The notes beneath the pieces were generated by a model. The model did not search any database, had not been told where the DNA came from, and saw nothing but the letters and a program-made list of their open reading frames with translations. A stretch of 64,000 nucleotides of DNA from the NCBI GenBank assembly GCA_963681965.1, contig OY820579.1, positions 1,920,001 through 1,984,000 of the forward strand. The letters are read 5' to 3'. This document shows, one piece after another, positions 5,694 to 54,158 of the stretch. The number at the start of each line of letters is the position of its first letter. Position 1 is the first letter of the stretch. This stretch comes from a bacterium (GTDB lineage: Bacteria > Electryoneota > JAOADG01). Made by a program: the position numbers and the translations under genes.

Positions 5694-5699
5694 GCACAA

Positions 5700-6731: not shown

Positions 6732-6744
6732 CGCCGAGGATTGT

Positions 6745-7104: not shown

Positions 7105-7116
7105 ACTGAGGCTCTC

Positions 7117-18698: not shown

Positions 18699-19590
18699 GG
18701 TAATTAGTGGTGGTCTGGCACAAGTATTATCTTGTGATCATGGATCTAATTACTTACGAACACTTGGTTAAGAACGAACAAACAGCACGAAAATTCGTGT
18801 TGGGATTTTGCTGGAAAAACCAACAGCGATTTTGTCCCCGTTGTAACACCCGAAAACTATATCGGTTATCGGACCATCGTTATCGCTGTTCGGAATGCAA
18901 ATACACCTTCCACGACTTCAGTGGCAGATGGATCAACCATGGTTCTTTGAGTTGCCAGCAATGGCTTCGTATCGTAAAATTGTTTGAGCTCGAGCAGTCG
19001 GTGCGCAAGATTGCGAGCCAGTTGAATCTCGATTACGGAACGGCTTACAAAGCGGTTACCACGATTCGCTTGGCGATCCTGACGAATCAGATTAGTCCGC
19101 CGCTGGGCGGTAACATCGAGCTCGATGAAAGTTATTTCGGCGGCCATCGCAAAGGGAACCGTGGCCGTGGTGCGGCCGGTAAAGTCCCGGTATTCGGCAT
19201 TCTCCAGCAACATGGCAAAGTCGTTGTAGAAGTGGTTCCCGATGTCAGTGCCGAGACGCTGGTCGAGTTAACGGTAAAAAAAGTTCGTCGCGGCAGCATC
19301 ATTTACACCGACAAATTTCGCAGCTACGACAGTCTAATGTGCTGCGGTTATCGCCATCTGAAAGTCGATCACGGCAAACAATTTGTGAAAGGTCGTGTTC
19401 ACATCAATGGACTCGAAGGGTTCTGGAGCTGGGCAAAGGAACGGTTGATGAAACACCATGGCGTTTCGAAAGAGACTTTTCCGCTGTATCTCAAAGAGCT
19501 CGAGTTCAGGTACAATAATCGCGATCAGGATATCTTCAAAATGATCGTGCTATATCTGTCAACTATTGTGCCAAACCACCACTAATTACC
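18699..19590 (+). mobile_element. Complete IS1595-family insertion sequence (892 bp)
   Basis: 25-bp inverted repeats GGTAATTAGTGGTGGTCTGGCACAA (18699-18723) and TTGTGCCAAACCACCACTAATTACC (19566-19590), 1 mismatch; 8-bp direct repeat ATTACTTA at 18691-18698 and 19591-19598. Confidence 0.96.
18740..19585 (+). CDS. IS1595-family DDE transposase
   Basis: CPRC..CSEC Zn ribbon, HTH, ELDESYFGG, RGRGAAGKVPVFG, IYTD, HINGLEGFWS, YLKELEFRYN; stop codon lies inside the right inverted repeat. Confidence 0.96.
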   Translation: MDLITYEHLVKNEQTARKFVLGFCWKNQQRFCPRCNTRKLYRLSDHRYRCSECKYTFHDFSGRWINHGSLSCQQWLRIVKLFELEQSVRKIASQLNLDYGTAYKAVTTIRLAILTNQISPPLGGNIELDESYFGGHRKGNRGRGAAGKVPVFGILQQHGKVVVEVVPDVSAETLVELTVKKVRRGSIIYTDKFRSYDSLMCCGYRHLKVDHGKQFVKGRVHINGLEGFWSWAKERLMKHHGVSKETFPLYLKELEFRYNNRDQDIFKMIVLYLSTIVPNHH

Positions 19591-22394: not shown

Positions 22395-23188
22395 TGAGCG
22401 CGAATCACTCCGATACGATTAATCTGACCCTGAAAGTATGGCGGCAAGCGAATACCAGTGCTTCCGGTCAGTTTGAAACTTATCCTGCGAATAATATCTC
22501 GACGGAAATGTCGTTCCTTGAGATGCTCGATGTCGTGAATGACCAGCTCGCATTGAAGGGGATTGAACCGATCGCATTCGATCACGATTGCCGCGAAGGG
22601 ATCTGCGGATGCTGTGGTGCAGTGATTAACGGTCAGGCACACGGCAGATTGAAAGGCACTACGCTTTGTCAATTGCACATGCGCTGGTTTAAAGATGGTG
22701 AGACATTATGGATCGAACCGTTCCGCGCGGCAGCATTTCCCATAATCAAAGATCTGGTCGTGAATCGAAGTGCTTTCGACCAGATTATCTCCGCTGGCGG
22801 TTTTATTTCGGTGAAAACCAATTCTGTCCCTAACGCCAACGTAATTCTGATTCCGAAGGATGATGCCGAACTTGCGATGGATGCCGCCGCTTGTATCGGA
22901 TGTGGTGCATGTGTAGCCGCGTGTCCCAATGGGTCGGCAATGTTGTTTGTTTCTGCCAAAATCAGCCATATGGGTCATTTGCCGCAGGGTCAACCGGAAC
23001 GGTACCAACGAGTGCTGGGAATGGTAAAAAAGATGGACGAATTGGGATTTGGTAACTGCACGAATCATTTGGAATGTGAAGCGTCTTGCCCGAAAGAAAT
23101 TAAAATCACCAATATCACGAGGTTAAATCGAGATTATCTAGTAGCGAAATTAGCCAAAGGAGATCCGGTAGACAATTCTAACGAGTAG
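22394..23188 (+). CDS. sdhB: Succinate dehydrogenase/fumarate reductase Fe-S subunit
   Basis: [35 protein letters not shown]; ATG 22394 overlaps the sdhA stop. Confidence 0.96.
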
Positions 23189-27790: not shown

Positions 27791-30520
27791 TTACTTCAGG
27801 TAAACTGCTTTACGGGTGGTGATGAAATTCGGTGACTTCATCGTGATGAAGTAAATCCCCGCTGAAAGATTATTCGTCTCTCCCGACCACACAATTGAAT
27901 GTATTCCGGCATCGAAATCCCGATCGCACAGTGTCGAAACCTGTCGTCCGGCGGCATCGAATACCGTTACTTGAACGCGGCTCGTTTGCGGTACGGCAAA
28001 TCGAATCGTAGTCGAAGCATTGAATGGATTCGGTGCAATTGCATGCAAAGCAAATTTCGTGGGAATTGTAGAAATTGCTTGATCGGTGGGATTTTCAGAC
28101 TCGATTCTACCGATCGACTTCGGATCCTCGCCCTTATCACCCTTCGAATCTGCAACATCGTTGTTGATGTAAGTGTCGATTGGCGCAAGGAACGGAGGAG
28201 TCAGGTCAAACGGATCCGGAGTGAATATACTGTAAATCGAAACTACTTGGTTAGTGGTATTTAATCCGGCAAATTTGCCAACAATTGCCCACCGATCGCC
28301 GTCCTGACCATCCGACTGCCAAGTAATCACTCGCCGAATTTCAAAGATATCGTTTTGTGAAAAATTGGTATAATAATTATGATCCCATCCCTGCCACCGG
28401 GTTGGATTCGGATAATTTGGAGCGATCGCGACTACTGGACTGGTTTGAACATATGTTTCGGGTTGTGAATTTACGATTACTGGAGTAGTAAGTGCCGTAC
28501 CTAAAACCGGCGACCAAACCTCAACAACATTTTTATCGCGTTCACTGGTTCCATACTGGTCATACACGACACAATATCGAGTACCGGAAAAAGCGATTTG
28601 AGGATAGGCGTAGTATCGATTTCGCTCTCCTGTGAAAAAGAAATCTGTGTTGATGGTATTGATATCAAGAATTGTATTGTCGGCAACCCTCACATTACCG
28701 TCGTTATATGCAATTCCGATTTGATTGTGAGTGCCGGAACAGATCGATGGATGAACATCGAAATCGTGAATATTCCAGAGATGCGTAATTCGATTCGAGT
28801 TGCCCACTTCAAAATGATGCGATCTGAGTAATTTCACATCGATTGTAGGAGGATCCTGACGTGAAGAGACGAACGTTATTGCAAAAAATCCTTCTCCCTC
28901 AACGAAACAGACATCCGGATCCATGGAGTTGGATTCAGAGACGATAGTGGGTGGAAATTCTTCAAACGGTAACCTCCCGACTGCGCGAATTTGATCGTCT
29001 GCTTGCCAGGTGATACAATATCCACCGTCATTCGAGAATGCTACTGATGGTTTGTACAAGACACGTCGAGATGGATCGGGAAATTCTGCGCTGACAACGA
29101 CATCATTTTCGGTTAATTCGTATGTTTTATAAGTTGGATTCCACCGTAACGATGATCGCTTGATCACATTGAAAAATGTGTCGTCGATATGTTCACGCCA
29201 AACCACAATTATACTCCCGTCAACCGGATTGACAGCGACATCGGGTGCATCGCATACTGTGGTAGGTCGGGGATCGTTGATTTTGAATTCTCCGGATTCG
29301 GCAAGACCCATCGGGTTGTACCACCGACCGCGAAGATAATTGGTTTGACTTAACCAGACTACAACAAAGCTCCCATCGAGTGGATTGCAGGCGATTGCAG
29401 ATTGTTCTTGAGAACCGGAAGTAGTGTAGTTGTTGACTTTCAATTCTGTCGGATTCGCGAATCCAGCGGTTTGAAGTCGACCAAAGGACGGGGCATATCC
29501 TCCTACGAATTTACCGATGCTATCGGCTGGGAAGTTGGTGAATCCTTGATGATATAAACTATCGACGAAATTCAAATGTTGACGTCGCTGCATTTCATTG
29601 ACACTCATGTTGATCACGGCTGCCTGCGCATTGGCAATATTGTTAATCGTATAGGATTTGTAAGACATCGCATGCTCGCCGAAACGAGGATTACCAAGGA
29701 CCTTTCTTACGCCCCAAAGTGTATCGCTTTCCTGAACCAGCGCATTTAGCGAATTGTCCGTGATGCCCGGCGCAATTTCGGATACGGTACGAGCTAACGC
29801 CCAACTTGCAGCAGTTGGGTGCATCGTCGAAACCGCATTGTAGTAATTTCTCGCGATCAGGTAGTTGCGGATCAAGTTGACACCGTAATACTCGGAATCA
29901 ATTGCATGAGATCGCGCATGATTGTAGCCTGTTGGATAACTGAAATTGTACCACTCCGTGTATTCGCGATTGTTGACGATGTTAGTTGCAGAGATGCCGG
30001 TACCCACTCGGTCTCGAATGGCACTCATTGAAGCTGTATCGATCGTCCCGTTGTGTTCGAATCGAAAATAATTACCCATAACGTTGTATTCGTAGGGTGC
30101 TGGACCGGGAACATTAGCTGGACCTGAAGAGCCACGACGTGCATGGGCATATGCAACGCGACGATTGGCAACGCGAACCGAATTCATTACAGTATCGACC
30201 ATAGCTGAATCGAATGCAGTGGCGATATCGGTTGCAGAACGGTATGTGAATGGTAAAAATTGACGAGGACCGCCAGCCCAACCATTGGGACAATTTCTCT
30301 GCCATACATAGGGCGGATTCATCGAGCTATCTTTCTTAGCTATTTGCCGCCATGCTTTCCAAACATTGTCGTAGGTATACAGATAATTTGAACCGAGGGG
30401 TGTACTCGTTGAAGAGACAAAGCCCATCATTCGACAGGCAGTCGCGCTATTTGCAATGATAACGACAAGAATCAGAGTAAGCAGAAGAATTGCACGGAAG
30501 GTAAATCGTTTACCAAACAT
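27791..30520 (-). CDS. Secreted class II glutamine amidotransferase-like (Ntn hydrolase) protein with T9SS type A-like C-terminal domain
   Basis: Signal peptide then CRMMGF; YAHARRGSSG, FEHNGTI, IDSEYY (GATase_4/EgtC-like motifs); beta-rich middle; APNPFNAST..LSAGIYF..RKAVYLK. Confidence 0.8.
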   Translation of the reverse strand: MFGKRFTFRAILLLTLILVVIIANSATACRMMGFVSSTSTPLGSNYLYTYDNVWKAWRQIAKKDSSMNPPYVWQRNCPNGWAGGPRQFLPFTYRSATDIATAFDSAMVDTVMNSVRVANRRVAYAHARRGSSGPANVPGPAPYEYNVMGNYFRFEHNGTIDTASMSAIRDRVGTGISATNIVNNREYTEWYNFSYPTGYNHARSHAIDSEYYGVNLIRNYLIARNYYNAVSTMHPTAASWALARTVSEIAPGITDNSLNALVQESDTLWGVRKVLGNPRFGEHAMSYKSYTINNIANAQAAVINMSVNEMQRRQHLNFVDSLYHQGFTNFPADSIGKFVGGYAPSFGRLQTAGFANPTELKVNNYTTSGSQEQSAIACNPLDGSFVVVWLSQTNYLRGRWYNPMGLAESGEFKINDPRPTTVCDAPDVAVNPVDGSIIVVWREHIDDTFFNVIKRSSLRWNPTYKTYELTENDVVVSAEFPDPSRRVLYKPSVAFSNDGGYCITWQADDQIRAVGRLPFEEFPPTIVSESNSMDPDVCFVEGEGFFAITFVSSRQDPPTIDVKLLRSHHFEVGNSNRITHLWNIHDFDVHPSICSGTHNQIGIAYNDGNVRVADNTILDINTINTDFFFTGERNRYYAYPQIAFSGTRYCVVYDQYGTSERDKNVVEVWSPVLGTALTTPVIVNSQPETYVQTSPVVAIAPNYPNPTRWQGWDHNYYTNFSQNDIFEIRRVITWQSDGQDGDRWAIVGKFAGLNTTNQVVSIYSIFTPDPFDLTPPFLAPIDTYINNDVADSKGDKGEDPKSIGRIESENPTDQAISTIPTKFALHAIAPNPFNASTTIRFAVPQTSRVQVTVFDAAGRQVSTLCDRDFDAGIHSIVWSGETNNLSAGIYFITMKSPNFITTRKAVYLK

Positions 30521-40255: not shown

Positions 40256-42529
40256 CTACTTTTTTTGAGTATTATTTTTATAATAGGATAAAATCTCAGC
40301 ATATCGCGGAAACTTCGATTTCATCACGTTATCAAAAACAACTCGATATGGCTCATCAAAATCAGGCTCAGATGGAAAACTATCAGTTACAATACAGTTT
40401 TTCATTAACGACTCATTAATTTTTTTCTCTACGTTAAAATTAGTGTAAAGCGGGTCAACATAGTAAAATGGAGGAAATCTCCCTATTCCAGATAAAGGTT
40501 CTTTTCCAACTTCTCTATAAACTGAGTATTGAATGTACCTTAAGTTGCTTTTTACAAACATATTAGTATAATAATTCGTGTCACTTACTTGAAAATTGAC
40601 GATAAAACTATCAACGTTTGCTCGATAAAATATATTTTTATCATATCTGATTCTATCCATCCACATTTTATTCAATATATAGAGAGAATCAAAAGTGCTT
40701 GAAATGATCTGACTGTTATTATCGATCACAAAATTACTAGTTGATAACAATTTGAAAATCGATGAATATATCCTTGAATTTCTAATTAATATTGAATCAT
40801 AGAGTCCAAGACTATAGTATTTTGGTAAGTTTTCATTCACTGACGTTTCTCGTCGAGAATATCGAGTTTCTAATAGCTGATCATCTTTGAAGATAATAGT
40901 ATTCATCGGTTTGTTATCTAACAGAGTTAAGTATGTAAGATCACATTTTGTGAAGTGTGACCTAGATATAGTTCGTGGGATCGTAGCATCGTATAAAGAA
41001 ACATCATATAGATTTAGAGAATCAAAGTTTGCACTGCCAAAATTTGCATTTCTAAAATACGAATTTGAGATATTTGCACCATATAAGTCAGCATTATAAA
41101 AATTACTTCTGTCCCCATTAGAGTTACTGAGTATCATAAATCGTAAATTTCGATTATTGAAGTTGCGACCATGGATTCTTAGAATATTTTTGTATGTAGA
41201 ATCGAGCCTGTCCCAATCTGTTGGTACTACTGATAAATCTTCTCCATCAATATTCAAATACAAAAACTCGAAATTCGATTTTTTGCTTCCGTATATTGCA
41301 ACATACGTGAATGATATCATGAAAATCAGCACCATTGCTGGTAGACAATACATTATTGTTGTACTTAATGTAGAAGAAAGTTTTTGACTTAAATTACGTT
41401 TAGTCCTTCGAATGAAAATAATACTTACATAAACAGCTAATATATAAGAAAGCATATGTATCATTGCAGGTAGAAACTTGTGTGTTTTGATGTAAGTACC
41501 CCAAACAAAAATTATAATTACTGGTACTATCCACCAATTTAACAAGTGTATAAGTAACCACTGAAGTTTGGCAAGAGTTGAATTGAAATATCCTGGGAAA
41601 AATTTTACTAACACATTGAACAATTTAATTTTTCGGTATCTTGCCTCTGTATTTGGAGTGACTTTCTTTTTAAGATTTCTCTTAACAAGCCATGGGATAT
41701 GTGAATTAATCAATTCATTTGTTAACCAAGGGGTAATTTTTTGATTAACTCGTAATCCATCTGGAAAAACAGCTGGTAATTGACCAATTTTTTCCATAAC
41801 CTTTATCAGATGAATCTGAGAATAGATGTAAAAAAAAACGTATAAAATAATACCCCAGACTAGCGCAAAAGAATACGGAACTGAGCTCGTATGGAGAGGT
41901 GATAATGGTGTTCTATCATCTATAAGTAAAGAAATCGGAGTAGATGTTGCCATAGTGAGGATTAAATAACCGCTTGCAGCAAGAACGATTTGATATAAAT
42001 GTTTGGCATTCTTAGTTGTTTCAGTTACGCTATTTAAACCGCTCTCGAATTTGCCAATAGTATCTGGTAACTTTGCATTGGTTAGATTAGCACGCGCTAG
42101 TTGATGCGCTGTTAGAGTCGTCAGTTCACTTAAATCAACTTCGGTGAGATCGGCATCATGAAATGTCGCGTTGGTAACGTCAGCGGAGTCGGTTTGGATT
42201 TCTTCATTTGGTCGTAATTCTCGATTAGGAATTGGTTTTTTAAAAAAAACGGCTTTTCTTAAATTGGCATGGTTAAATTTTGTGCCTTTAAGAATAGCGG
42301 TATTTTCTCCAACTCTTGAATGAATGTTATCTTTAAGAATAGGTCGAGGGTTAACCGAAAAGTTTGCACCTTCTAAATTTACCTCTGAGAAGTCCAAACC
42401 TGACAGATCCAAATCACTAAAATCGTGATAACTTAAGTCAGCTCTAGTTCCTGGTTTTCTATTCGTTTTCAACATGAGGTGATGCTGATCCAGTATTACT
42501 TTAATTTCTTCAAGCGTCTTTCTTTCCAT
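40256..42529 (-). CDS. Pentapeptide-repeat membrane protein (AT-rich gene)
   Basis: ADLSY/ANLRK/ADLTE/ANLTN repeats, central TM helices, second pentapeptide block (ADLYG, ANFGS). Confidence 0.82.
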   Translation of the reverse strand: MERKTLEEIKVILDQHHLMLKTNRKPGTRADLSYHDFSDLDLSGLDFSEVNLEGANFSVNPRPILKDNIHSRVGENTAILKGTKFNHANLRKAVFFKKPIPNRELRPNEEIQTDSADVTNATFHDADLTEVDLSELTTLTAHQLARANLTNAKLPDTIGKFESGLNSVTETTKNAKHLYQIVLAASGYLILTMATSTPISLLIDDRTPLSPLHTSSVPYSFALVWGIILYVFFYIYSQIHLIKVMEKIGQLPAVFPDGLRVNQKITPWLTNELINSHIPWLVKRNLKKKVTPNTEARYRKIKLFNVLVKFFPGYFNSTLAKLQWLLIHLLNWWIVPVIIIFVWGTYIKTHKFLPAMIHMLSYILAVYVSIIFIRRTKRNLSQKLSSTLSTTIMYCLPAMVLIFMISFTYVAIYGSKKSNFEFLYLNIDGEDLSVVPTDWDRLDSTYKNILRIHGRNFNNRNLRFMILSNSNGDRSNFYNADLYGANISNSYFRNANFGSANFDSLNLYDVSLYDATIPRTISRSHFTKCDLTYLTLLDNKPMNTIIFKDDQLLETRYSRRETSVNENLPKYYSLGLYDSILIRNSRIYSSIFKLLSTSNFVIDNNSQIISSTFDSLYILNKMWMDRIRYDKNIFYRANVDSFIVNFQVSDTNYYTNMFVKSNLRYIQYSVYREVGKEPLSGIGRFPPFYYVDPLYTNFNVEKKINESLMKNCIVTDSFPSEPDFDEPYRVVFDNVMKSKFPRYAEILSYYKNNTQKK

Positions 42530-42653
42530 TTTGGCTCCAATTTGCAATCATTTGTAGTATTCAAACTTCTTAATAATACAAATTAAAGTGTATTATAGTC
42601 AATGAAATGTTATGAGAAATCGACTATTTATTCTCGTGAGAGAGTTATTCAAA

Positions 42654-44053: not shown

Positions 44054-45067
44054 GATACAATCCTTTCAACGCGACGAGTTGCGCCGCGAACTACGCAGTG
44101 TGAGTCAAGCAAGAATGCTCTAAAATTAAATCTTAATCTGCAATCAGTGTGATTGCGAGTGAGGAGGGGTGGGATTAGGTCTCAGCCTTAATCCACTCCA
44201 TAAAGATGAGGCAACGGATGAGTTTTAACATGGATTACTTTCGTTGTGATTCGTTCGTCCATCCACAATATATCACTGAAAATCGATGAATAAAAATCGG
44301 AAACCTAAGCTAATTCGAAATACACAATTGTTTCGGGAAATATGATTTTCCTCGATAGTAACTCGAAATAATTAGAGCGAACACCGGAAATGGTGTCTTG
44401 AATTTTGAGAATCCAACCATTACTTGACTCAATCGCAGTTGAACAAGAAAAAAAGCTAATGTGATCGATTATTGCTGATAGCTTATGTAAGAATAAACTA
44501 TAATAACTATATATAATAGATTATTAAAACAATGTGTAAGAAAACTCTAATGTGCTACGTATCACATAATAATTAAGTCGATCATCTATATCGGGTTGTC
44601 CGTTAATATTCTGAATGAGTATGTTGATTTAAGCACCACTATCACTAGATCTTCTTTATTTATAACCAGTTCGCTTACATGCGCTGTAAATCTTCGAGGT
44701 CTCCTCTTTTTAAGTGCAATTATCTTATTGATTTGTGAATTATGAGTTACCGAGAGTGCTCACTCGTAGCAGAGACGATGGCATCTGAATCGATCGATCG
44801 GGTCGATGTGTGGAGACATCCATTGTTACTACGTGTGACAGCGATTTCGAAGGTAAGTAAGTCATTATACTCGAGATAAATTTAAAGTAAGCACTTAAAA
44901 AAAAGGTTAAGGAGAGAACTACTCTTGTCGAAGAGTTGAGTAGAGGCCTTCGATTCAGCTTATAAATTCGCTTCAGCTTTTTTCTTAAAGGTTCCGCTCA
45001 GAAGCCTAATCAAGAGAGTTGGTCAATTGAACGGCCGTTGTCTGAGTGCAGCAATAATGGAGGATTA

Positions 45068-48000
45068 ATGCAAAAGTTCGTAAGAAAGTCGATAGTCACC
45101 CTCGTGTTGACTATCATCGCGTTCGCAGTGGGAGTTGCCCAAGCGGACAATCGGGTCTACCCGACAACTGCGACGAACTGGCCCCGCGTTCACGGTGCCT
45201 CCGGTACGAAACAAAACGCAGTTTTCGGATACAAAGTTGGTGCCAATGCCTATAATTTCCTTGGTCAAAGCGTGATTTCTGCGCAGCGATCGGGTGCATT
45301 TATGGCTTTGGTTCCTACAACAGGGGTTACTACGGCAACCACCTTTACCGATGGGTCAACCTACAATTTCGACGAATATTCCGGCTTAGTACTTGCCAAT
45401 GGCAACTATGCCGTATTCGGCGAAATTTTGTTTACGACAGCCTCGACTCGTGCGTCGATGTTTATTCGCACAAGTGCCGGCGCTGCTGTAGGCGGGTATC
45501 ACAATGTTGGTTCGGCGGGAACTGTTTCGCGATTCAACAAAGCGATTCAGCTTACTGGCGGTACCTACGATGGTAAAGTTGTAGCAGTTGGTTACTCCGC
45601 AGCAACCGGTTCCGCGGGTGCTGGAGATATGTTGTTTGTTCGATTGACTCCGGCTTCCACCGTAACAATCGATCAAACTTCTTATATCGGAACGACGAAT
45701 GAAGAAGAAGCCTATGCCGTTTGCCAAGTTGGCACCGATACCGTTGCCATCGCTGGTCGACAAAAAGTCGGAACGAACAACAGCTTCTATGTAAAATTAG
45801 TGAAAGTGTCCGATGGCACCGTGATTTCCAGCTTTACCCTTTCGGGTGCAGCTGGAACCGGTGACAACGATTGCATTCGCGACATGTTTGTGGATGGCGA
45901 TGGTAATCTGGTTCTCGTTGGAACTAGTGGAACTGGGACTGGCAGAGTTGGTTATCTGGCTAAGCTCAATCCTGCGACCGGAGCATTGATTTCCGGTTAT
46001 GAATTCACTACTTCTGAGACCGATGTCGAGTTAATGGATGCCGATGTTGCCGCCAATGGTCACATCGTCGTAACGGGTCGTCAAGGTAACGATATGTACC
46101 TTGCCGAAATTCAGGACAATGGTCATGCCTATGTCAGTGACTGGGCACACTCTTATGACAATGCCAGCAAGACTGGTGAAATTGGTAATTTTGTGAAGAT
46201 CGAATCCGATTCGACCATTTTGGTAGCTGGTGTTGCCAACGATGCCGGTGCTTCCACCGATGCATCGTTCTGGCTCTTGAGTGCTCCTGCTCTGCAATCC
46301 AATGCAGGACCAACCGCATTCGATTTACTAACACCAACTGACGTTGATACCGTGACGATATTATTGCCGACGCTTACTTGGGCATCCTCAACCGATGCAA
46401 TTCTCGGCTACACGATTAGTTATGAATTGACTTGGGCAGATAACTCAGGTTTTACTAGTCCAACCGTTGTTTCGGATTTAGCGGATACAACGTACACTTT
46501 CGCAACTCCATTGACCAACAGTGGTGTATATTATTGGAAAGTGAAAGCACTCGATGGTAATGATAATGAAACCGAATGTACGCAAGGTACTGCAGGTTGG
46601 AGTTTCACTGCATACGTTGCACCACCGACTGCATTCAATCTCACTGCACCGGCTGATGCCGATTCAGTTGGTTTGTTCCCGACGTTGGATTGGGAAGCCG
46701 CGACCGGCGCTGGTATTTCTTATGAACTGACTTGGGCTGATAACTCTGGTTTTACCAGTCCGACTGTGGTATCCAATCTCGATACTAACAGCTATACCTT
46801 TGAAACAGCGCTCACGAACAATCAAGTATACTACTGGAAAGTGAAAGCAGTTGACACTCTTACCAGTGAGACTAACTGCACGCAAGCTCCCGACGGTTGG
46901 AGTTTCACTGCCTACGTCGCTGGTCCAAGTGCATTCAACCTGACTTCGCCGTCCGATGGTGGTTCGGTTTCTACGACCCCGACACTGGATTGGGAAGAAG
47001 CTACCGGTGCTGGTGTTGTTTACGAATTGACTTGGGCTGATAATGCCTTGTTTACCGGTGCCACGGTCGTATCGGATCTCGATACTAACAGCTACACCTT
47101 TACAGGTGGTCTCTCGAACGATCATGACTACTACTGGAAGGTGAAAGCGATCGACTCGCTAACCAGCGAAACAAATTGTACGCAAGCGCCGGATGGTTGG
47201 CATTTCTTGACGCCGATCACTCCGCCGGCTCCGATGAACGTTCGACTCAATTCGACCGTAGCCTCGACACCTGCCTATTACGACAATGCGAACTATGCAG
47301 GTTTTGATTCATTGGCAGTGGACTCGTATGATGCTTTGGATGTACCACAACCGCCAGTGTTAGGCAACAACTATATCCAGACATTCTTCTTTGAAAGTGG
47401 TTTCACTGGATTCCGTCAGAAATTGAATTCTGACTATCGTCTGTCCGTTGGTAAGAATTTCACGACGACGTCTTATCTGTACAAGATTCGTACGCTTACC
47501 GATCAGACCGCTACCGTTACATATACCTTCGATGTTTCGACCAACAACACCGAAACGTTACCGGTAGTCTTCTGGGATGGCACCGATTATCAAAACTTGC
47601 TGGGTGCTACCGACGCAGACAATACTTACACGTATTCCGCAACGGGAACAACCGGTTCTCCGGAAACCAAGAATTTTGCCATCTTGATCGGCGACAAAAC
47701 CGCTCCGGCAGTTACTCACATTACACCGGCAGCGAGTGGTTTAACGGAAATTTCTCGAAGTAGCTCTACGACGTTGGAAATTGCCGTTGACAATACAAGC
47801 CCGGTCCGACGCACTACGATTGCATTCTCGCCCGTACAGGATTCGACTTCGCATGTCGCGAACGATCCACGCGAGAATTTCACCGATTTGAATAATATGC
47901 CAGTTGCACCAGCAACTCCCGATGATCCGACCAATGGTCTGGTAAACCCGCACCTGACATATGATTGGATTCCGGCAACCGATGATCCCGCGATCTTTGT

Positions 48001-49576
48001 GAGCCCGACCGATGTATTCCCGCACGCACAGCTTCGATTCATTACCGAAGACTGGGCAGGAAATATTGATACGTCCTATGTCGATTTCGCAATTGTCCCG
48101 GATGATTTCAACTTCACCGGCGATTATGCCGCAGGTTGGCATCTGATTTCGTTCCCGCTTACTCCCGATGATCCTGCTACACCGTTCTTGACGCATACCG
48201 GCAACGACAGTGGTATTGCAGGCAGCTATGGGATGTTCCAGTATACGTTAGCTGGTGGTTATACCGTACCGTCCTCGGTTGCCATTGCGAAGGGTTACTG
48301 GCTAGTATTGGATGATGACAATACTGCAGCAGCGAATAATTCCGGTCTGGGTCGAGTTGGTGGTACAATTCCTGGAGCTACCGAAGATGTAGATCTAGCA
48401 CTCGATCTCGCGTCACAGAATCTGATCGGTGTCGCAGTTCGAGATGACGATCTGGGTGGAAATCACCTGCAAGCCGACGACTGGGTGTTCTCGAATGATA
48501 GCTGGACCAACACCTATACGTGGACTGAAGTCACGACAACTGCTGACAAGAATGGCGACGGCACAATTTGGATCGATCCGACTTCGTTAGTCACGTATGA
48601 CAATTCGGCGGGTGATTTTACGACCACAATTGCCGACAATGCTGCATTAGTTCCCGGTAAAGGTTACTTATTAACCACTTCCGGAACTTATTCCGGAACG
48701 TTGGAAATGAGAACACAACGTACTACTGCCGCCGTCGATATCGTTCATCCACGACATCGCGACGATGGTAATGCTATTGTGAAGGGTCACAATAACACGA
48801 TTAACTCTGTCAATGAATTTACTGGCGACTGGTTTGTGCCGATTCATATGGCAATGGGTTCGTTGTCGAACAATCTGTCCGGTTTTGGTTGCCGGAATGG
48901 CGCAACCGTTGGTTGGGATAACGGTATCGATGTCACGGCACCGCCACTTCCGCCATCGGGTAACTATGTTCGTGCAGTTATCGATGGTTCAACTTGGAAT
49001 TCGCCGTTCGGTCGATATTTCGTAACCGATATCCGAAATCCATTTGCTGGAACCAGCCGAACCGGTTCATGGGACTTCCGGGTCAATGCATCGCAGGAAG
49101 GTCAAGTATCGATGACGTTTGATCTATCGAACTTGGCGCAATACGATGTACCAGCAACATTCAGTATCATTGCAACGATTAACGGTCAAACGTTCGACCT
49201 CGCGCAATCCAATACAATTACGTTCCCCTATACTAGTGGTATTGTGATTGTACACGTTGTCGCGTCGTTGGATGGTGCCAGTGTACCAGCGCAGAATCTC
49301 TTGTTGCCGAAGGATTTCTCGATTGTAAATGCGTATCCGAATCCATTCAACCCCGAAACTTCGATCCGCATCGGCTTGCCGAACGTTTCGAAACTTCAGG
49401 TTGTGATTTACAATTCGCTTGGTAAGGAAGTTACGCGATTGGCAGACGGAACCTATCCGGCTGGCTATCACAACTTCACATTCGACGGTCACAGTCTGTC
49501 GAGCGGTGTGTACTTCATTCGCGCCGTGTCGCCAGGACATCAGAATCAAATCAAGCGAGTGGTTCTGGTTAAGTAA
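45068..49576 (+). CDS. Giant acidic secreted protein with tandem FN3-like repeats and T9SS type A-like C-terminal domain
   Basis: GGAGG RBS then ATG 45068; signal peptide VAQA/D; propeller-like N-terminus; AYPNPFNPET..YNSLGKEV..LSSGVYF..KRVVLVK. Confidence 0.85.
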   Translation: MQKFVRKSIVTLVLTIIAFAVGVAQADNRVYPTTATNWPRVHGASGTKQNAVFGYKVGANAYNFLGQSVISAQRSGAFMALVPTTGVTTATTFTDGSTYNFDEYSGLVLANGNYAVFGEILFTTASTRASMFIRTSAGAAVGGYHNVGSAGTVSRFNKAIQLTGGTYDGKVVAVGYSAATGSAGAGDMLFVRLTPASTVTIDQTSYIGTTNEEEAYAVCQVGTDTVAIAGRQKVGTNNSFYVKLVKVSDGTVISSFTLSGAAGTGDNDCIRDMFVDGDGNLVLVGTSGTGTGRVGYLAKLNPATGALISGYEFTTSETDVELMDADVAANGHIVVTGRQGNDMYLAEIQDNGHAYVSDWAHSYDNASKTGEIGNFVKIESDSTILVAGVANDAGASTDASFWLLSAPALQSNAGPTAFDLLTPTDVDTVTILLPTLTWASSTDAILGYTISYELTWADNSGFTSPTVVSDLADTTYTFATPLTNSGVYYWKVKALDGNDNETECTQGTAGWSFTAYVAPPTAFNLTAPADADSVGLFPTLDWEAATGAGISYELTWADNSGFTSPTVVSNLDTNSYTFETALTNNQVYYWKVKAVDTLTSETNCTQAPDGWSFTAYVAGPSAFNLTSPSDGGSVSTTPTLDWEEATGAGVVYELTWADNALFTGATVVSDLDTNSYTFTGGLSNDHDYYWKVKAIDSLTSETNCTQAPDGWHFLTPITPPAPMNVRLNSTVASTPAYYDNANYAGFDSLAVDSYDALDVPQPPVLGNNYIQTFFFESGFTGFRQKLNSDYRLSVGKNFTTTSYLYKIRTLTDQTATVTYTFDVSTNNTETLPVVFWDGTDYQNLLGATDADNTYTYSATGTTGSPETKNFAILIGDKTAPAVTHITPAASGLTEISRSSSTTLEIAVDNTSPVRRTTIAFSPVQDSTSHVANDPRENFTDLNNMPVAPATPDDPTNGLVNPHLTYDWIPATDDPAIFVSPTDVFPHAQLRFITEDWAGNIDTSYVDFAIVPDDFNFTGDYAAGWHLISFPLTPDDPATPFLTHTGNDSGIAGSYGMFQYTLAGGYTVPSSVAIAKGYWLVLDDDNTAAANNSGLGRVGGTIPGATEDVDLALDLASQNLIGVAVRDDDLGGNHLQADDWVFSNDSWTNTYTWTEVTTTADKNGDGTIWIDPTSLVTYDNSAGDFTTTIADNAALVPGKGYLLTTSGTYSGTLEMRTQRTTAAVDIVHPRHRDDGNAIVKGHNNTINSVNEFTGDWFVPIHMAMGSLSNNLSGFGCRNGATVGWDNGIDVTAPPLPPSGNYVRAVIDGSTWNSPFGRYFVTDIRNPFAGTSRTGSWDFRVNASQEGQVSMTFDLSNLAQYDVPATFSIIATINGQTFDLAQSNTITFPYTSGIVIVHVVASLDGASVPAQNLLLPKDFSIVNAYPNPFNPETSIRIGLPNVSKLQVVIYNSLGKEVTRLADGTYPAGYHNFTFDGHSLSSGVYFIRAVSPGHQNQIKRVVLVK
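46306..47212 (+). repeat. Three tandem repeats of about 100 aa (about 300 bp)
   Basis: P.AF.L..P.D..PTL.W..YELTWADN..FT..TVVS.L..YTF..YYWKVKA.D..ET.CTQ..GW repeated three times. Confidence 0.9.
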
Positions 49577-49600
49577 GTAATCCGAAATAATTGCTGGAAG

Positions 49601-49636
49601 CCTCTTCGGGTAGAAATGCCCGAAGAGGTTTTTTTT
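49601..49636 (+). terminator. Intrinsic terminator
   Basis: CCTCTTCGGG/CCCGAAGAGG stem followed by 8 T. Confidence 0.9.
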
Positions 49637-49799
49637 AGACCTCAGCCTACACGCTAAAGTCGAAAAATGGTTCGAAACGATACATTTTTATTCCATGGGA
49701 TTATTTCTAACTCTGGTTACAATCTACTTGACTACGCGCGCTTTTCTTACTAACATTTCACATTCGTTTCACAACCTATTCCCCGGAGGTGGATTCCCC

Positions 49800-51107
49800 T
49801 TGAATAAAAGATCCCAACCCACCCATTATCTCTTACTGCTCGTTGCGATTATTGGATTCGCATATCCTTTAATAAGTAGTGCTTCTCCTGCGCAACCCGA
49901 TCCGAAGTCCTTGGCTAATACGCTAAAAGAATTGCAGAATGCCGTTTCTGGTGCTGTTCAGACCGACGCATCGGACAGTCTCCGAGTGCGCTTATCGCAA
50001 CTGCAGGCACCCATGAATGTCACAGCCGAAGATGTTCCGAACGATGGCGGTAAAGCGATTAAAGTCAAGTGGCAATACCCGGAAGTTCCGTTCGAACTCC
50101 CAACCGAACTCCAAATTTTCCGGTTGTCCGATCGTAATCAACAGGGCGATTTGATCGGAAAAGTCGGTCCGTTGGTTCACGAAGCAGTTGATAATAGCGT
50201 CGAGAATGGTGTTCCAACGAGCTACCGGGTTCAAGCTCTTTTCAAAGATGGTGCAGTCGTTGCAAGTGGTCCATCGACACCGGCGATCGCGGTGGTTTCC
50301 TACTTCAACTGGAACCGATTAAATCAACTCGTCATTTCGATCATTCTGATCGGAGCCGTGCTGGTTTACATCTTTTTGGCTTCGCGTGGCGTGCACATGA
50401 AGATTCGCAAGATCTCCGGTATCGAAGCGATCGAAGAGGCTGTCGGTCGTTCGACCGAAATGGGCAAACCAATTCTTTATGTCCCCGGTACGCAGGATAT
50501 GGACAATGTCCAGACGATTGCCGGAATCAATATTCTCGGTTCCGTTGCCAAAATGGCAGCGAAATACGAGACCCGCCTCGATGTGCCGGTTGCACGCTCG
50601 ATCGCCATGTCGACCGGTCGCGAAACCGTGCATGAAGCGTATCTAACCGCCGGACGCCCCGATCTGTATCACGACGATATCGTTCACTATATCACCGACG
50701 AACAATTCGGATTTGTGGCTGCAATCGACGGTATTATGGTTCGCGATAAACCTGCGGCATGTATCTACATGGGTGCGTTTTATGCCGAATCACTGATTCT
50801 AGCCGAGACCGGCAACAGTATCGGTGCTATTCAAATTGCCGGAACAGCCATGCCCACGCAACTCCCGTTTTTCGTTGCGGCTTGCGACTATACTCTGATC
50901 GGTGAGGAACTCTTTGCCGCCAGTGCATACTTAAGTGGCGATCAGCGCGAGATTGGGTCGCTCAAAGGGCAGGATTTCGGTAAAGCCGTCGCAATGGGAC
51001 TCATTATGGTCACATCCTTACTCTGGACAGTGTATAATGTGACTCAGAGCGGTGCGATGGAAAAAGCGTATAAGTTCTTTTTCGATATGACTTCATCAAC
51101 TTTCTAA
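49800..51107 (+). CDS. DUF6754-type membrane protein with N-terminal FN3-like domain
   Basis: GGAGG then TTG 49800; signal/TM; DVPNDGG FN3-like domain; IRKISGIEAIEEAVGRSTEMGKP, GAFYAESL, FFVAACDYTLIGEELFAASAYL. Confidence 0.8.
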   Translation: MNKRSQPTHYLLLLVAIIGFAYPLISSASPAQPDPKSLANTLKELQNAVSGAVQTDASDSLRVRLSQLQAPMNVTAEDVPNDGGKAIKVKWQYPEVPFELPTELQIFRLSDRNQQGDLIGKVGPLVHEAVDNSVENGVPTSYRVQALFKDGAVVASGPSTPAIAVVSYFNWNRLNQLVISIILIGAVLVYIFLASRGVHMKIRKISGIEAIEEAVGRSTEMGKPILYVPGTQDMDNVQTIAGINILGSVAKMAAKYETRLDVPVARSIAMSTGRETVHEAYLTAGRPDLYHDDIVHYITDEQFGFVAAIDGIMVRDKPAACIYMGAFYAESLILAETGNSIGAIQIAGTAMPTQLPFFVAACDYTLIGEELFAASAYLSGDQREIGSLKGQDFGKAVAMGLIMVTSLLWTVYNVTQSGAMEKAYKFFFDMTSSTF

Positions 51108-51121
51108 ATTGACCGGGAACT

Positions 51122-51871
51122 ATGCCAACTTACTTAATACTAATTCTGGTGGTTCTGATCGGTTCCGTTATTGCCGGTTTTCTGATACCGAGCTTACGGA
51201 AAGGGATACCACTATTTATCACACTGGTTACTGGCGTGCTACTCTTCCTGTCGTTGTTTATTCCGGCGCAACCATTTCCATCGCTGGAAGAGGAGATGTC
51301 GATCTGGTTCGATGTGATTGCCGTCTTCAGTTTTATTCTGGGCGGCGGCAACCTAATCCGTGTGCACTTGCGAAAGATCACCCGGCAGGATCGCGATTGG
51401 AAATTCTCCGCAGTTACTTTGGGTGGATTCTTTTTCATGCTGATCGTCGGTCTGTTCAAAATCGGTGCTTCCACCATGTCGGAGGATTACCTCGCGAATG
51501 GGACCGCTTTCAAATGGATGTATGATGCCGTCTTCACGCCACTCAGTGCGACAATTTTCTCGTTGCTTGCGTTCTTTGTTGCCTCGGCGGCTTTTCGTGC
51601 CTTTCGCGCCAAAACCCGCGAAGCTACAATCCTGCTGATTGCCGCGTTCATTATTCTGATCGGTAGAACGCCGATCGGCGTATTGATGACGGCATGGCTG
51701 CCGGACTCGCTGCAATTCCTCACAATCCCAAGTCTGAGTGGTTGGATCTTATTGGTACCGAATATGGCGGGGCAACGCGCAATTATGATTGGTGTCGCGC
51801 TCGGTATCATTTCAACTTCGATGAAAATGATTCTTGGGATTGAACGAAGTTGGTTGGGAGGAGATGAATAA
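51122..51871 (+). CDS. Uncharacterised polytopic membrane protein (operon gene 2)
   Basis: About 7 TM helices; PLSATIFSLLAFFVASAAFRAFRAKTREA, GQRAIMIG..ILGIER. Confidence 0.8.
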   Translation: MPTYLILILVVLIGSVIAGFLIPSLRKGIPLFITLVTGVLLFLSLFIPAQPFPSLEEEMSIWFDVIAVFSFILGGGNLIRVHLRKITRQDRDWKFSAVTLGGFFFMLIVGLFKIGASTMSEDYLANGTAFKWMYDAVFTPLSATIFSLLAFFVASAAFRAFRAKTREATILLIAAFIILIGRTPIGVLMTAWLPDSLQFLTIPSLSGWILLVPNMAGQRAIMIGVALGIISTSMKMILGIERSWLGGDE

Positions 51872-52734
51872 TGGCGAATTCCAACGACAGCTTCATGGAA
51901 AAACTTGGTCGCATCGATCGCCGCTGGATCTTCTTGGTGATCGCACTGGCAGTAGCATTGCCGATGTTTCTAGGATTCGATTTCAAAGCGGTTCCTTCAC
52001 CGATGGTCGAGAATCTGTATAAGAAAATCGAAGCACTCCCTGCCGGATCGCGAGTCTTGATCTCGTTCGATTACGGTCCATCGACCGTTCCCGAGAATCA
52101 ACCGATGGCAGATGCAATCGTTTGGCACCTGCTGAAAAAGAAATGCAAAGTCTATTTCATTGCAACTTGGCCGACCGGCGAGCGACAATCGCAACTGACG
52201 GTTGAAACGACAATTAAAAAGGGAATGCCGACAGCGGTCAACGGTGTCGATTATGTCGATCTCGGTTACAAAGCGGGTGGCTCGGGCTTGATCAATCTGC
52301 TCTTTTCCAATTTTAAACGGATGTATACCAACGATCGCAATCGCAACAATGTCGAGAACATTCCGATGATGAATGAAATCGAATCGCTGAAGAATTTCAA
52401 TATGATTCTTTCGATTTCATCGGGTGCACCGGGCTTGAAAGAGTGGATCCAATTTGCCGGTGATCGCGGCAAGATCCCCGTAGCAGGTGGTGTTACTGCC
52501 GTACAAGCAATGGAATTGTACCCCTACTATCCCCGACAGATGTTCGGATTGATGGCAGGGCTGCAGGGCGGAGCGGAGTACGAATCAATCGTAATCAGCA
52601 ATTATCCCGAATTCGAACCGCTACGTGCCGCGCTGAAAAAAATGGCACCGCAGACCATTGCACACTTGGCAATTATCACGCTGATCATTATCGGCAACAT
52701 TGCCTATTTCTCCACTCGAAAGCACAGGAGATAA
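51871..52734 (+). CDS. Uncharacterised membrane-anchored protein (operon gene 3)
   Basis: N- and C-terminal TM helices around an alpha/beta domain; DRRWIF, SFDYGPS..EN, GVDYVDLGY, YPYY..GL.GGAEYE. Confidence 0.8.
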   Translation: MANSNDSFMEKLGRIDRRWIFLVIALAVALPMFLGFDFKAVPSPMVENLYKKIEALPAGSRVLISFDYGPSTVPENQPMADAIVWHLLKKKCKVYFIATWPTGERQSQLTVETTIKKGMPTAVNGVDYVDLGYKAGGSGLINLLFSNFKRMYTNDRNRNNVENIPMMNEIESLKNFNMILSISSGAPGLKEWIQFAGDRGKIPVAGGVTAVQAMELYPYYPRQMFGLMAGLQGGAEYESIVISNYPEFEPLRAALKKMAPQTIAHLAIITLIIIGNIAYFSTRKHRR

Positions 52735-52735
52735 T

Positions 52736-53425
52736 GTGACTGAACTGACTTTATGGGATCATCTTGCATTGTGGGTCGGAGCCGCACTCACGTTGATGAT
52801 CTTCAGCTTTTTATACAAAGACAATCCGTTCTACAAATTTGCCGAGCACCTGTTTGTCGGTGTGAGTGCCGGATATGTCATGGTTACCGGTTTCTGGTCT
52901 ACCATGATCCCGAACGGAATCGGAAAAGTTTGGCCCGAGGCAGTGGTGTCGTTTGTTCCGCAAGCAGCTAATGCCGTACCGAATCTCTACTTTTTGATTC
53001 CAATTATTCTCGGGTTGATGATGTTGACCCGATTGTTCGGTGAGGTCGGATGGATCAGTCGCTGGCCGATGGCGCTCATTATCGGATTCTCGGCTGGTAC
53101 GAATCTGACCCGCTATCTTCAATCCGACTTCATGCAACAGGTTCACTCGTCGTCCTTGCCGTTTATTGCGATGGGGAGTGGTGGATTTTCGATTGGCGAT
53201 TCGTTCTCGAACACGATTCTAGTACTTGGTATTCTTGCAGCATTGATCTATTTCTTTTTCTCAGTCGAGCACAAAGGGGTCTTTTCTGGCGTCTCTCGTG
53301 GCGGTATCTGGGTACTGATGGTGACATTCGGAGCCGGTTTCGGATATACCGTCATGGCGCGTATTTCGCTCCTGATCGGGCGCTTTGAATTCCTCAAGCA
53401 GTGGCTCCAGTCATTCTTGAGTTAA
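52736..53425 (+). CDS. Uncharacterised polytopic membrane protein (operon gene 4)
   Basis: AGGAG then GTG 52736; SFLYKDNPFYKFAEHLFVG, YFFFS, MVTFGAGFGYTVMARISLLIGR. Confidence 0.8.
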   Translation: MTELTLWDHLALWVGAALTLMIFSFLYKDNPFYKFAEHLFVGVSAGYVMVTGFWSTMIPNGIGKVWPEAVVSFVPQAANAVPNLYFLIPIILGLMMLTRLFGEVGWISRWPMALIIGFSAGTNLTRYLQSDFMQQVHSSSLPFIAMGSGGFSIGDSFSNTILVLGILAALIYFFFSVEHKGVFSGVSRGGIWVLMVTFGAGFGYTVMARISLLIGRFEFLKQWLQSFLS

Positions 53426-53445
53426 ACTGAATTACAAGTTGAATG

Positions 53446-53476
53446 AAAAACGGGGCATCGTCGCCCCGTTTTTTTT
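53446..53476. terminator. Bidirectional intrinsic terminator
   Basis: AAAAACGGGGC/GCCCCGTTTTTTTT between convergent genes. Confidence 0.88.
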
Positions 53477-53537
53477 ACTGGTAATCGTTAAGTAGAAAAT
53501 TCTGATATCGTATCGCTTAAGATCGACGTGATTCTCG

Positions 53538-54158
53538 TCATCGAGCAAAAATATTGTTGCGATTCTTTTCCTGCCAATACAAGATTGATTCATACTGCTT
53601 TTGCACATTCGTGTCGTTGGGCGCTATTTCTTTTGCACGACGCGCCATTTCCACGGCACTGGTATAATCGAAACAGAGTCCATAGCAACGGGACATCTCG
53701 AGAATGAGGGGAATATTCTTAGGGTATCGATCGTAAGCTTTCAACAATATGATAACCGCAATTTTATTGTCTTTTTCATCCCAATCGCCGCGAGCCGTGT
53801 GCGCACGTGCTAAATTCAAGTAGGCATTCAGGCAGGTCGAATCGGTTTGGATCGCTTGTTCGAGAATATCGAATGCATCGTCGAATTTCCGGAAGATCAT
53901 ATACACTTTTCCGATTGCTGCCATCGCCTCGGCATTCTTCGGTTCTTTTGCCAATACTCCCTGATAAAGTTGAAGCGCATTCTGATATTCGAATTTACTG
54001 ATCAACTCATCGCCCTGCTTCATCCATTTATTTTGGGAAGTACCGGTCTGATTGCAGGAGAGTATCATAAAGAGCAGAATAGTCAGCAAGAATCCCAACA
54101 AAACAGTAAATGGCCGCGTCTGAAGAGTGCTGCTGATTTCATAATTACGTTTTATCAT
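53538..54158 (-). CDS. Tetratricopeptide-repeat lipoprotein
   Basis: ILSC lipobox; TPR-like helical repeats. Confidence 0.8.
   Translation of the reverse strand: MIKRNYEISSTLQTRPFTVLLGFLLTILLFMILSCNQTGTSQNKWMKQGDELISKFEYQNALQLYQGVLAKEPKNAEAMAAIGKVYMIFRKFDDAFDILEQAIQTDSTCLNAYLNLARAHTARGDWDEKDNKIAVIILLKAYDRYPKNIPLILEMSRCYGLCFDYTSAVEMARRAKEIAPNDTNVQKQYESILYWQEKNRNNIFAR

Follow-up and report, generated by a model that had tools for sequence, protein, structure and literature searches.

The Rnf and Na+-NQR complexes combine two subunits of about six transmembrane (TM) helices each with bitopic subunits that expose soluble domains on the two sides of the membrane. TRAP (DctQM), TTT (TctAB), Trk/Ktr and MgtE systems use no ATPase and pair polytopic with accessory subunits, RCK- or CBS-regulated channels set a Rossmann-like cytoplasmic domain on a membrane core, and proteins of the GldG/ABC_transp_aux type consist of an N-terminal TM helix, a periplasmic α/β domain and a C-terminal TM helix. 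Here we describe a cassette of four genes, g1 to g4, at positions 49800-53425 of a 64-kb stretch of DNA from a bacterium of the Electryoneota (contig OY820579.1, positions 1,920,001 to 1,984,000; this whole stretch is hereafter the window). Set against the descriptions of these systems, the cassette is alike in architecture to Rnf and Na+-NQR, shares the want of an ATPase and the mix of polytopic and accessory subunits with the second group, shares a Rossmann-like cytoplasmic domain, and in three arrays a CBS-pair gene, with the regulated channels, and has in g3 the layout of GldG. However, unlike Rnf and Na+-NQR, it has no Cys clusters and no flavin or Fe-S motifs, bears no sequence relation to these complexes, and its two polytopic proteins, g2 and g4, are not detectably homologous. 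Unlike the TRAP, TTT, Trk/Ktr and MgtE systems, it has no match to their models, no solute-binding protein and no GxGxxG, and its soluble domains are anchored by TM helices on both sides; unlike GldG/ABC_transp_aux proteins, g3 has no Pfam match and no ABC-2 permease or ATPase partner. The described family PF20539 (DUF6754) corresponds to residues 167-413 of g1; it covers one of the four proteins and has no function attached, and g2, g3 and g4 fall in no Pfam or NCBIfam family. The cassette is a large, well-defined 'known unknown', three of its four proteins being without a Pfam family, and by comparison of sequences (for g1 and g3 also of folds) it appears to lie outside every known kind. We propose that the four proteins quite probably form one hetero-oligomeric inner-membrane complex, a proposal based on the genetics of the cassette and on two natural g3-g4 fusions.

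The genes and the domains of g1 are as follows.

49800..51107, + strand: g1, 435 amino acids (aa) from TTG 49800, defined by the open reading frame (ORF) list, ribosome-binding site, Pfam, AlphaFold2 (AF2) and hydropathy
50013..50264, + strand: exported FN3 domain of g1, residues 72-155
50298..51038, + strand: DUF6754 region of g1, residues 167-413, from Pfam
51122..51871, + strand: g2, 249 aa, a polytopic protein with about six TM helices and one additional hydrophobic helix at its N-terminus
51871..52734, + strand: g3, 287 aa from ATG, with a TAATG overlap with the g2 stop and GGAGGAG upstream
52736..53425, + strand: g4, 229 aa, with a GTG start that lies one base past the g3 stop and 5 nt after an AGGAGA

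In the ORF list these are four co-directional same-strand ORFs in the order g1-g2-g3-g4, separated by 14, -1 and 1 nt, and a ribosome-binding site can be read ahead of every one of them. The tight coupling and the self-contained operon that had been claimed in a preliminary description of this DNA are upheld by the ORF list, the ribosome-binding sites and the flanking terminators, and g1-g4 is a single transcription unit. All four are real genes rather than chance ORFs, being kept at 31-75% identity in 51 independent genome loci.

These 51 confirmed loci came, together with 79 candidate stretches in all, from one scan with g1 of a genome collection covering 185,579 species. Their titles name mostly Zixibacteria- or Ignavibacteria-labelled metagenome-assembled genomes (MAGs), and also Hatepunaea, Eisenbacteria and nameless bacteria. 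By tblastn the order g1-g2-g3-g4 is kept in 51 of 51 loci and is never permuted. The loci hold 85 copies of g1; 46 of these have at least 2600 nt downstream, and 44 of the 46 are followed directly by g2, g3 and g4 (gaps below 400 nt). The co-occurrence of all four genes, which the preliminary description had named as a check, held in these loci in the form of strict adjacency. The exceptions are loci L004 and L005, in which an insert of 3.6-4.5 kb lies past g1 and g2-g3(-g4) then resume. In the four closest loci of the Hatepunaea type (L002-L005), we note, foreign genes have inserted at the g1/g2 junction: the inserts at L004:7336-10512 and L005:7082-10844 carry defence-like or mobile genes and encode AAA_21, Schlafen/AlbA_2 with HATPase_c_4, and ParA-like AAA_31 proteins, a DNA methylase follows g1 at L003:1737-3610, and foreign ORFs follow it at L002:7445-8479. 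A shared protein of about 312 aa is encoded just ahead of g2.

The cassette is commonly present in tandem. Tandem cassettes were found in 29 of the 51 loci, with three g1 copies in L006, L015, L039, L043 and L045 and two in 24 others; several of the arrays run past the end of the fetched locus, so that array length is a lower bound. The order within arrays is fixed (type 1, then type 2, then type 3). When 59 complete cassettes and that of the window were sorted, type 1 (n=36) was always first in its locus, type 2 accounted for 20, type 3 for three, and there was one singleton. Type 2 cassettes, among them the one in the window, stand second in arrays or alone (L001, L004, L007 and L049); in the 64 kb of the window its type-2 cassette is the only copy. 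Because cassettes of one locus are on average 0.47 identical (47%), as against 0.83 (83%) to the best cassette in another genome, the duplications are old and the copies have been retained. Pairwise identities of g1 to g4 across the 59 cassettes and the window correlate with r 0.81-0.95, values that are inflated by shared ancestry, and no mixed-type cassette was seen in the same set. In three of the 51 loci the space between the first cassette and its successor holds a stand-alone, same-strand CBS-pair gene of about 149 aa (L012:6205-6642, L017:9287-9730 and L035:9957-10403).

Genes that recur beside the cassette encode a PF13941 MutL-like (ASKHA-fold) protein (17 of 51 loci), proteins of about 375 aa (12 loci) and about 259 aa (10), an M4 peptidase (6), ExbB (6) and ExbD (4). 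All of these except the M4 peptidase belong to a divergent set that recurs on the opposite strand upstream of the arrays in, for example, L008, L010, L020, L024-L027, L033 and L050. We did not use the neighbors to assign function because they are confined to particular clades, are for the most part transcribed divergently and do not occur in the window.

The g1 protein contains both the most conserved and the most exchangeable parts of the cassette. From the AF2 model and hydropathy it comprises a signal peptide or anchor (residues 11-29), a helical stalk (35-67), the FN3 domain (72-155) and a TM helix (171-195), followed by the α/β DUF6754 domain (approximately 200-392), a second TM helix (393-414) and a short tail outside the membrane; the model has a mean predicted local distance difference test score (pLDDT) of 78.5, and its α/β domain has at least four parallel strands. 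The HMM search bore out the earlier assignment of this gene to the DUF6754 type: g1 belongs to PF20539 with an E value of 6.2e-116 (386.5 bits against a gathering threshold of 27, profile positions 4-250 of 257), and the same profile is matched by 80 of 80 aligned g1 homologues. The basic residues that follow the TM helix at 171-195 place the DUF6754 domain in the cytoplasm. In the 80-sequence alignment R203, R217, T219, E220 and E275 of this domain are invariant, and E330, E336, D363, E369 and E370 are at least 90% conserved. Residues 325-378 are the most conserved stretch of the whole cassette, nearly all positions being conserved at 90% or more. Part of this stretch, residues 338-367, is unstructured in the AF2 monomer; that the most conserved part of the protein should be disordered in the monomer suggests that it needs a partner to become ordered. 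In one homologue (P0128) RHS repeats follow the last TM helix, as would fit a g1 C-terminus lying outside.

The identification of the FN3 domain rests on structure and on profiles. In the AF2 model it is a seven-strand sandwich, with block pLDDT values mostly of 84-97 and one block of 64. Foldseek with the g1 model returned single Fn3 domains at target-normalized TM-scores (TMt) of 0.6-0.8, which assigns the domain to the FN3 fold, and a profile of the 80 g1 homologues matched titin Fn3 among PDB entries at an E value of 1.8e-13 and nothing else. (The Pfam fn3 model was matched by 12 of the 80 homologues, and g1 of the window gave no match to it at E ≤1.) FN3 dominates the Foldseek list; the entries of other kinds were a β-1,2-glucanase and the Nir2 LNS2 domain only, at TM-scores of 0.12-0.25 and root-mean-square deviations (rmsd) of 20-27 Å, and were uninformative. 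The preliminary description had taken the FN3 domain to be an addition at this locus. It is instead the norm in the related clade, since its columns are conserved at 90% or more in the 80-sequence alignment, and the three paralogous sets of cassettes all have similar single FN3 domains.

The second soluble domain is that of g3, the N-terminus of which is predicted to lie inside, followed by a TM helix (residues 20-38), a Rossmann-like α/β domain (approximately 44-250), a second TM helix (262-280) and a basic C-terminus, again inside. Both ends of the protein are basic (RIDRR and RKHRR), which places the domain in the periplasm. The AF2 model (pLDDT 91.5, predicted TM-score 0.87) has a six-strand Rossmann-like domain between the two TM helices, for which Foldseek found generic Rossmann or GT-B-half matches only (eight at E ≤1e-3, with query-normalized TM-scores (TMq) of at most 0.35 and rmsd mostly of 13-18 Å). 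Among 66 homologues of g3, the least conserved subunit (31-71% identity), none had a Pfam match at E ≤1 to the GldG/ABC_transp_aux type.

Longer relatives of g3 add to this picture. Among 25 such proteins, two are g3-g4 fusions, one is a g3-g3 tandem and 22 have a C-terminal g3 module, the 22 being those with an N-terminal extension of 300-870 residues that is predicted to be cytoplasmic. In a Pfam scan of 16, seven began with a zinc ribbon, one had a weak DUF7575 match only and eight had no match, and all three sequences that were read contained many (I/L/V)P-x-W-L repeats in low-complexity sequence. The fusions, P0242 (593 aa) and P0243 (599 aa), are natural g3-g4 proteins in which the linker contributes an additional TM helix; both are metagenome singletons, for which an artefact of assembly or gene calling is possible. 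In distant g3 homologues (P0244-P0265; P0264 is from an Anaerolineales MAG), the repeat takes the form (I/L/V)P-x-W-L-x-x-L(R/K), which presumably resembles the conserved C-terminal peptide of FtsZ.

The remaining two proteins are polytopic. In g2 of the window, the codon aligned to the usual Met start of homologues is TTA, so that the start must be ATG 51122 and the protein gains an extra N-terminal hydrophobic helix; this helix is clearly common only to the closest relative, L001 (match from residue 14), and the g2 matches in other loci begin mostly at residues 22-25 and in a few cases at 10-17. Residues R159, A160, F161, R162 and A163 (RAFRA) are invariant or at least 90% conserved, and by charge bias the RAFRA loop and a C-terminal ERS motif are predicted to lie on the cytoplasmic face. 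From hydropathy and from its homologues, g4 has about six TM helices with its N-terminus outside. Its invariant motifs are SFLxxDNPxYKxxE, R99/R109 and YFxFSxEHxG; among single residues, D29, N30, Y33 and E37 never vary, and conservation reaches at least 90% at R209 and L212. Long-form g4 homologues, as well as the two g3-g4 fusions, have one extra TM helix before canonical helix 1 of g4, which supports a g4 N-terminus that lies outside and invariant motifs on the predicted cytoplasmic face.

These features agree with much of what had been proposed for the topology. The TM-α/β-TM layout of genes 1 and 3, with their domains on opposite faces, is corroborated by the AF2 models, by positive-inside charge counts and by natural variants (homologues that have gained a TM helix or are extended at the C-terminus), and the polytopic nature of genes 2 and 4, with charged motifs, by hydropathy and by motif conservation in the alignments. 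Conservation is concentrated on the cytoplasmic side, in DUF6754 of g1, RAFRA of g2 and the DNPxYK and EHxG motifs of g4.

The family to which g1 belongs is large. A search with the DUF6754 part gave 2034 representative clusters (50% identity) at E ≤1e-3, of which 1523 remained at a cut-off of 1e-10 and 747 at one of 1e-30. Throughout the best 150 of the 2034 clusters, identity to the domain in the window is 49% or more; these proteins are 196-1272 aa long, and nearly all have the domain at their C-terminal end or close to it. What precedes DUF6754 is variable, with about 35 to more than 1000 residues across the family, and several DUF6754 proteins of 289-333 aa are too short to hold an ectodomain. 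Among proteins of 763 aa or more there were 381 matches at E ≤1e-5; among the 120 of these that were listed, 54 have PQQ/BamB-type β-propellers, seven have Fn3 arrays, one has RHS and 58 have DUF6754 only. Ig-like ectodomains also occur among DUF6754 homologues. The named sources of long DUF6754 proteins include Eremiobacterota, Vulcanimicrobiota and Armatimonadetes (55-61% identity). Of the 120 long proteins, 119 match g1 alone, and the other (P0239) has a weak match to g3 (27% identity) inside its ectodomain and is not a fusion.

A profile search with g4 gave at least 8000 scored candidates at E ≤1e-3 (8000 of 8000), and the 120 g4 matches listed are all without Pfam domains and nameless or 'hypothetical'. 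Neighbors in the ESM Atlas of g2 and of the g4 homologue P0052 are nameless clusters, commonest in Planctomycetota, Nitrospirota, Latescibacterota and Zixibacteria. The preliminary description had placed similar sets in diverse anaerobic bacteria and archaea. The organism names that we met do not bear this out, as all are bacterial and none is archaeal (Zixibacteria, Ignavibacteria-labelled MAGs, Eisenbacteria, Hatepunaea, Eremiobacterota and Armatimonadetes). The DUF6754 domain found no match by tblastn among 72,556 plasmids. In the roughly 8.4 million papers and preprints searched the terms DUF6754 and PF20539 were absent; among the ten entries listed there for Zixibacteria, fibronectin type III and membrane complexes none was relevant, nor were the four that contained PDWL. 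The family extends across several candidate and cultured-poor phyla, and a function for it would annotate thousands of genes. Three features speak for a role in core physiology, namely the strict four-gene linkage, the ancient tandem triplication and the unusually strong conservation of a single cytoplasmic domain; the preliminary description had missed both the ancient tandem paralogous cassettes and the extreme conservation of the cytoplasmic DUF6754 domain.

Consistent with the earlier claim that no ATPase, TRAP, ECF or redox signature is visible, neither a Walker A nor a CxxC motif is present in g1-g4, each of which has 0-2 Cys. In particular, neither g2 nor g4 has an above-threshold match in Pfam, NCBIfam or PADLOC, and sequence profiles of each gave 0 matches in the PDB at E ≤10. 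The four proteins do not belong to the ABC or ECF systems, there being no Walker A and no above-threshold Pfam or NCBIfam match to these; TMD0_ABC appeared only below threshold (best E 2.2e-4, the protein of the window scoring 15.3 bits against a cut-off of 27). They do not belong to TRAP or TTT, g2-g4 being without a Pfam or NCBIfam match and no gene for a solute-binding protein lying nearby, nor to Rnf or Nqr, for which no family match, no CxxC and 0-2 Cys per protein were found. PADLOC gave 0 defence families at E ≤0.1 for all four proteins. Comparison of g1 with g3 by hhalign showed no homology, whether as whole proteins or as domains only (probability 0.1%), and none was detected between g2 and g4. 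(A motif that g1 and g3 had seemed by eye to share, a β strand and then AG-TA...P-aromatic, was given no support by hhalign.) Lax Pfam scans of 80 g1, 71 g2, 66 g3 and 60 g4 homologues brought up TMD0_ABC in 38 of 71, 7TMR-DISM in 27 of 71, Radical_SAM in 11 of 66 and CoA_binding_3 in 5 of 80 homologues, all of which were sub-threshold and judged compositional, and DUF3394, the only trace of the TRAP, TTT, Trk/Ktr and MgtE families, in 11 of 71 g2 homologues, also sub-threshold only (best E 0.069).

How might such a complex work? The single most likely function, which we put forward tentatively, is that of a gradient-driven or gated translocation device, or channel complex, with its conserved working face in the cytoplasm. 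In this model, g2 and g4 would form a core of about 12 TM helices, and the cytoplasmic DUF6754 domain of g1 would dock onto the cytoplasmic loops of g2 and g4, which are invariant and mainly basic, through its own hyper-conserved acidic and polar loop at residues 325-378, so as to gate or drive the core. In the periplasm, the Rossmann-like domain of g3, which is more divergent, might cap the outer face and give specificity, and the FN3 domain on its helical stalk might serve as an exchangeable tether or capture module. Because no ATPase or redox cofactor site is present, the power would come from an ion gradient, or the device would be a gated passive pathway. Weak hints toward transport or a channel are the two polytopic subunits, the three diverged paralogous sets that have been kept, and the CBS-pair gene in three of the 51 loci, CBS pairs being frequent regulators of transporters. 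A prediction of the four-chain complex, with g1 as residues 170-435, scored below the margin set over a control in which g3 was replaced, and we counted it neither for nor against binding. Such a device might reveal a new ATP-free coupling between the two faces of the bacterial inner membrane, and the compact 3.6-kb operon is a practical target for co-expression, cryo-EM and flux assays.

Several observations weigh against the translocation model. The co-occurrence of the four genes covers only relatives that are at least 38% identical to g1, mostly Zixibacteria- or Ignavibacteria-labelled. No conserved metabolic neighbor that would name a substrate is present in the 51 loci or the window. Internal 3+3 repeats are common in secondary transporters, and none was found in g2 or g4 (best probability 8.7%). 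Nor was there any likeness to a characterized transporter, channel or family in Pfam, NCBIfam, PADLOC, PDB profiles or, for g1 and g3, the Foldseek comparison that the preliminary description had suggested. The conserved cytoplasmic domain (at least 49% identity in the best 150 of 2034 clusters), taken with the large variable ectodomains, fits a receptor, an anchor or an engine better than a solute carrier, and the long cytoplasmic tails of zinc ribbons and repeats on distant g3 homologues suggest the recruitment of cytoplasmic partners.

A broader form of the translocation model, which we consider doubtful, is that the cassette represents a new class of machine rather than a remote member of a described transporter, stator or secretion family. 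Here a near-invariant DUF6754 'engine' would sit on a heteromeric 12-TM core, exchangeable ectodomains (FN3, propeller, Ig or RHS) would couple events at the outer face or beyond it to ion-gradient-driven or gated translocation, and the three co-evolving sets would predate the divergence of lineages of the Zixibacteria type.

The pattern of an ectodomain that varies to the point of absence, and of a cytoplasmic domain that is nearly fixed, is the usual one for receptors and raises a different possibility, namely transmembrane signalling or tethering, in which the variable ectodomain of g1 would bind an envelope or external ligand and DUF6754 would relay this to g2-g4 or to cytoplasmic partners with no transport taking place. 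The zinc ribbons and PDWL-type repeats of long g3 homologues, which suggest multivalent recruitment of a cytoplasmic factor, would be in keeping with such a role. However, g1-g4 contain no recognizable output domain (kinase, cyclase or DNA-binding), no regulator is conserved beside the cassette, a receptor would have no obvious need for two polytopic partners and a periplasmic cap, and the single FN3 domains of the three paralogous sets are all similar; we regard signalling as rather unlikely, although it is nearly as good a reading as translocation.

Somewhat harder to sustain, and in our judgement unlikely, is a role in envelope biogenesis, in which the cassette would act at the membrane interface as the enzyme or exporter of a polymeric or lipid-linked envelope component, the Rossmann-like domain of g1 being catalytic on the cytoplasmic side and g3 and the ectodomain handling the product outside. 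The soluble domains of g1 and g3 are each Rossmann-like, and halves of GT-B glycosyltransferases make up most of the weak matches that Foldseek gave for g3. The many invariant polar residues of DUF6754 are as expected of an active site, the motifs conserved in g2 and g4 are situated where the membrane meets the cytoplasm, and glycans are common ligands of FN3, Ig and propeller ectodomains. In addition, a Bac_transf-family sugar transferase is encoded upstream in L002, L004 and L046 (confirmed by Pfam in L002 and L004), and a relative of GT4 glycosyltransferases upstream in L002 and L004. However, the g3 matches are generic (TMq ≤0.35, rmsd 13-18 Å), Pfam and NCBIfam find no nucleotide-binding or glycosyltransferase motif, and the sugar-transferase neighbors occur in a few closely related loci and are absent beside the cassette of the window.

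Finally, that the proteins are co-inherited without all being in one complex (for example only g1 with g2/g4, or only g3 with g4), or that g2 and g4 belong to a known transporter superfamily but are too remote for sequence methods to show it, is improbable: g1 is followed by other genes in L002-L005, with g2 onward resuming in L004 and L005, the only fusions are g3-g4, 119 of 120 long DUF6754 proteins match g1 alone, and the comparisons of g2 and g4 were by sequence, but against this stand the strict order and adjacency (44 of 46), the co-divergence of all four genes and the 0 matches of g2 and g4 in PDB profile searches at E ≤10.

The start of g1 and the boundaries of the operon were read from the DNA around it, where the following features lie.

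49597..49640, + strand: intrinsic terminator of the upstream gene, a 16-bp hairpin (49597-49632) followed by U8, forming the 5' boundary of the operon
49728..49756, + strand: promoter-like site TTGACT-17-TAACAT, 9/12 consensus matches, candidate promoter of the operon
53445..53476, no strand: terminator hairpin (53445-53474) with an A-tract on its 5' side and U8
53538-54158, - strand: tetratricopeptide repeat (TPR)-protein gene, convergent to g4

The most likely start of g1 is TTG 49800, which has a GGAGG about 11 nt 5' of it; an alternative, longer g1 ORF from ATG 49695 would contain the promoter-like site at 49728-49756. This site is weak evidence for a promoter, as a consensus scan found 11 promoter-like sites in the region against 8.7 expected. 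The two strong terminators that the preliminary description had placed on either side of the operon stood up to direct folding against 200 shuffles: the hairpin at 49597-49632 has a folding energy of -26.8 kcal/mol (z -7.39), and that at 53445-53474 of -18.9 kcal/mol (z -5.56), with 0 of 200 shuffles equally stable in either case. A generic consensus scan for terminators listed neither hairpin (terminator-like sites in the region numbered 7, against 7.0 expected), and the terminator claim therefore rests on the direct folds. Since the hairpin at 53445-53474 lies between g4 and the convergent TPR-protein gene, it may terminate transcription in both directions. A search of 49400-53700 with Rfam found no riboswitch and two sub-threshold chance matches only.

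The genes that flank the operon in the window encode a 1512-aa cargo protein of the type IX secretion system (T9SS), the TPR protein, a fructose-bisphosphatase (FBPase) and a haloacid dehalogenase (HAD) hydrolase; no gene for a solute-binding protein lies near the operon in the window, and no ATPase gene lies within the operon. The gene for the 1512-aa protein lies directly upstream (45038-49576, + strand); its product contains three Ig/Fn3-like repeats, nearly identical and each of about 95 aa, as well as a C-terminal domain for T9SS sorting (Por_Secre_tail). The window encodes two further cargo proteins of the T9SS, at 16891-17604 (- strand) and 27794-30520 (- strand). Between 40001 and 42000 the GC content of the window falls to 0.316, as against about 0.46 elsewhere, over most of the gene for a 763-aa pentapeptide-repeat protein (40259-42547, - strand). 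An IS1595-family transposase (DDE_Tnp_IS1595 plus zinc ribbon) is encoded at 18707-19582 (+ strand), adjoining a pair of genes at 20481-23185 for the flavoprotein and the Fe-S subunit of a succinate dehydrogenase or fumarate reductase. At the start of the window (21-7650, + strand) lies a complete chemotaxis cluster, which comprises CheA, CheW, two CheD, CheR, an HDOD protein, CheY, two CheX/CheC-type phosphatases and CheB.

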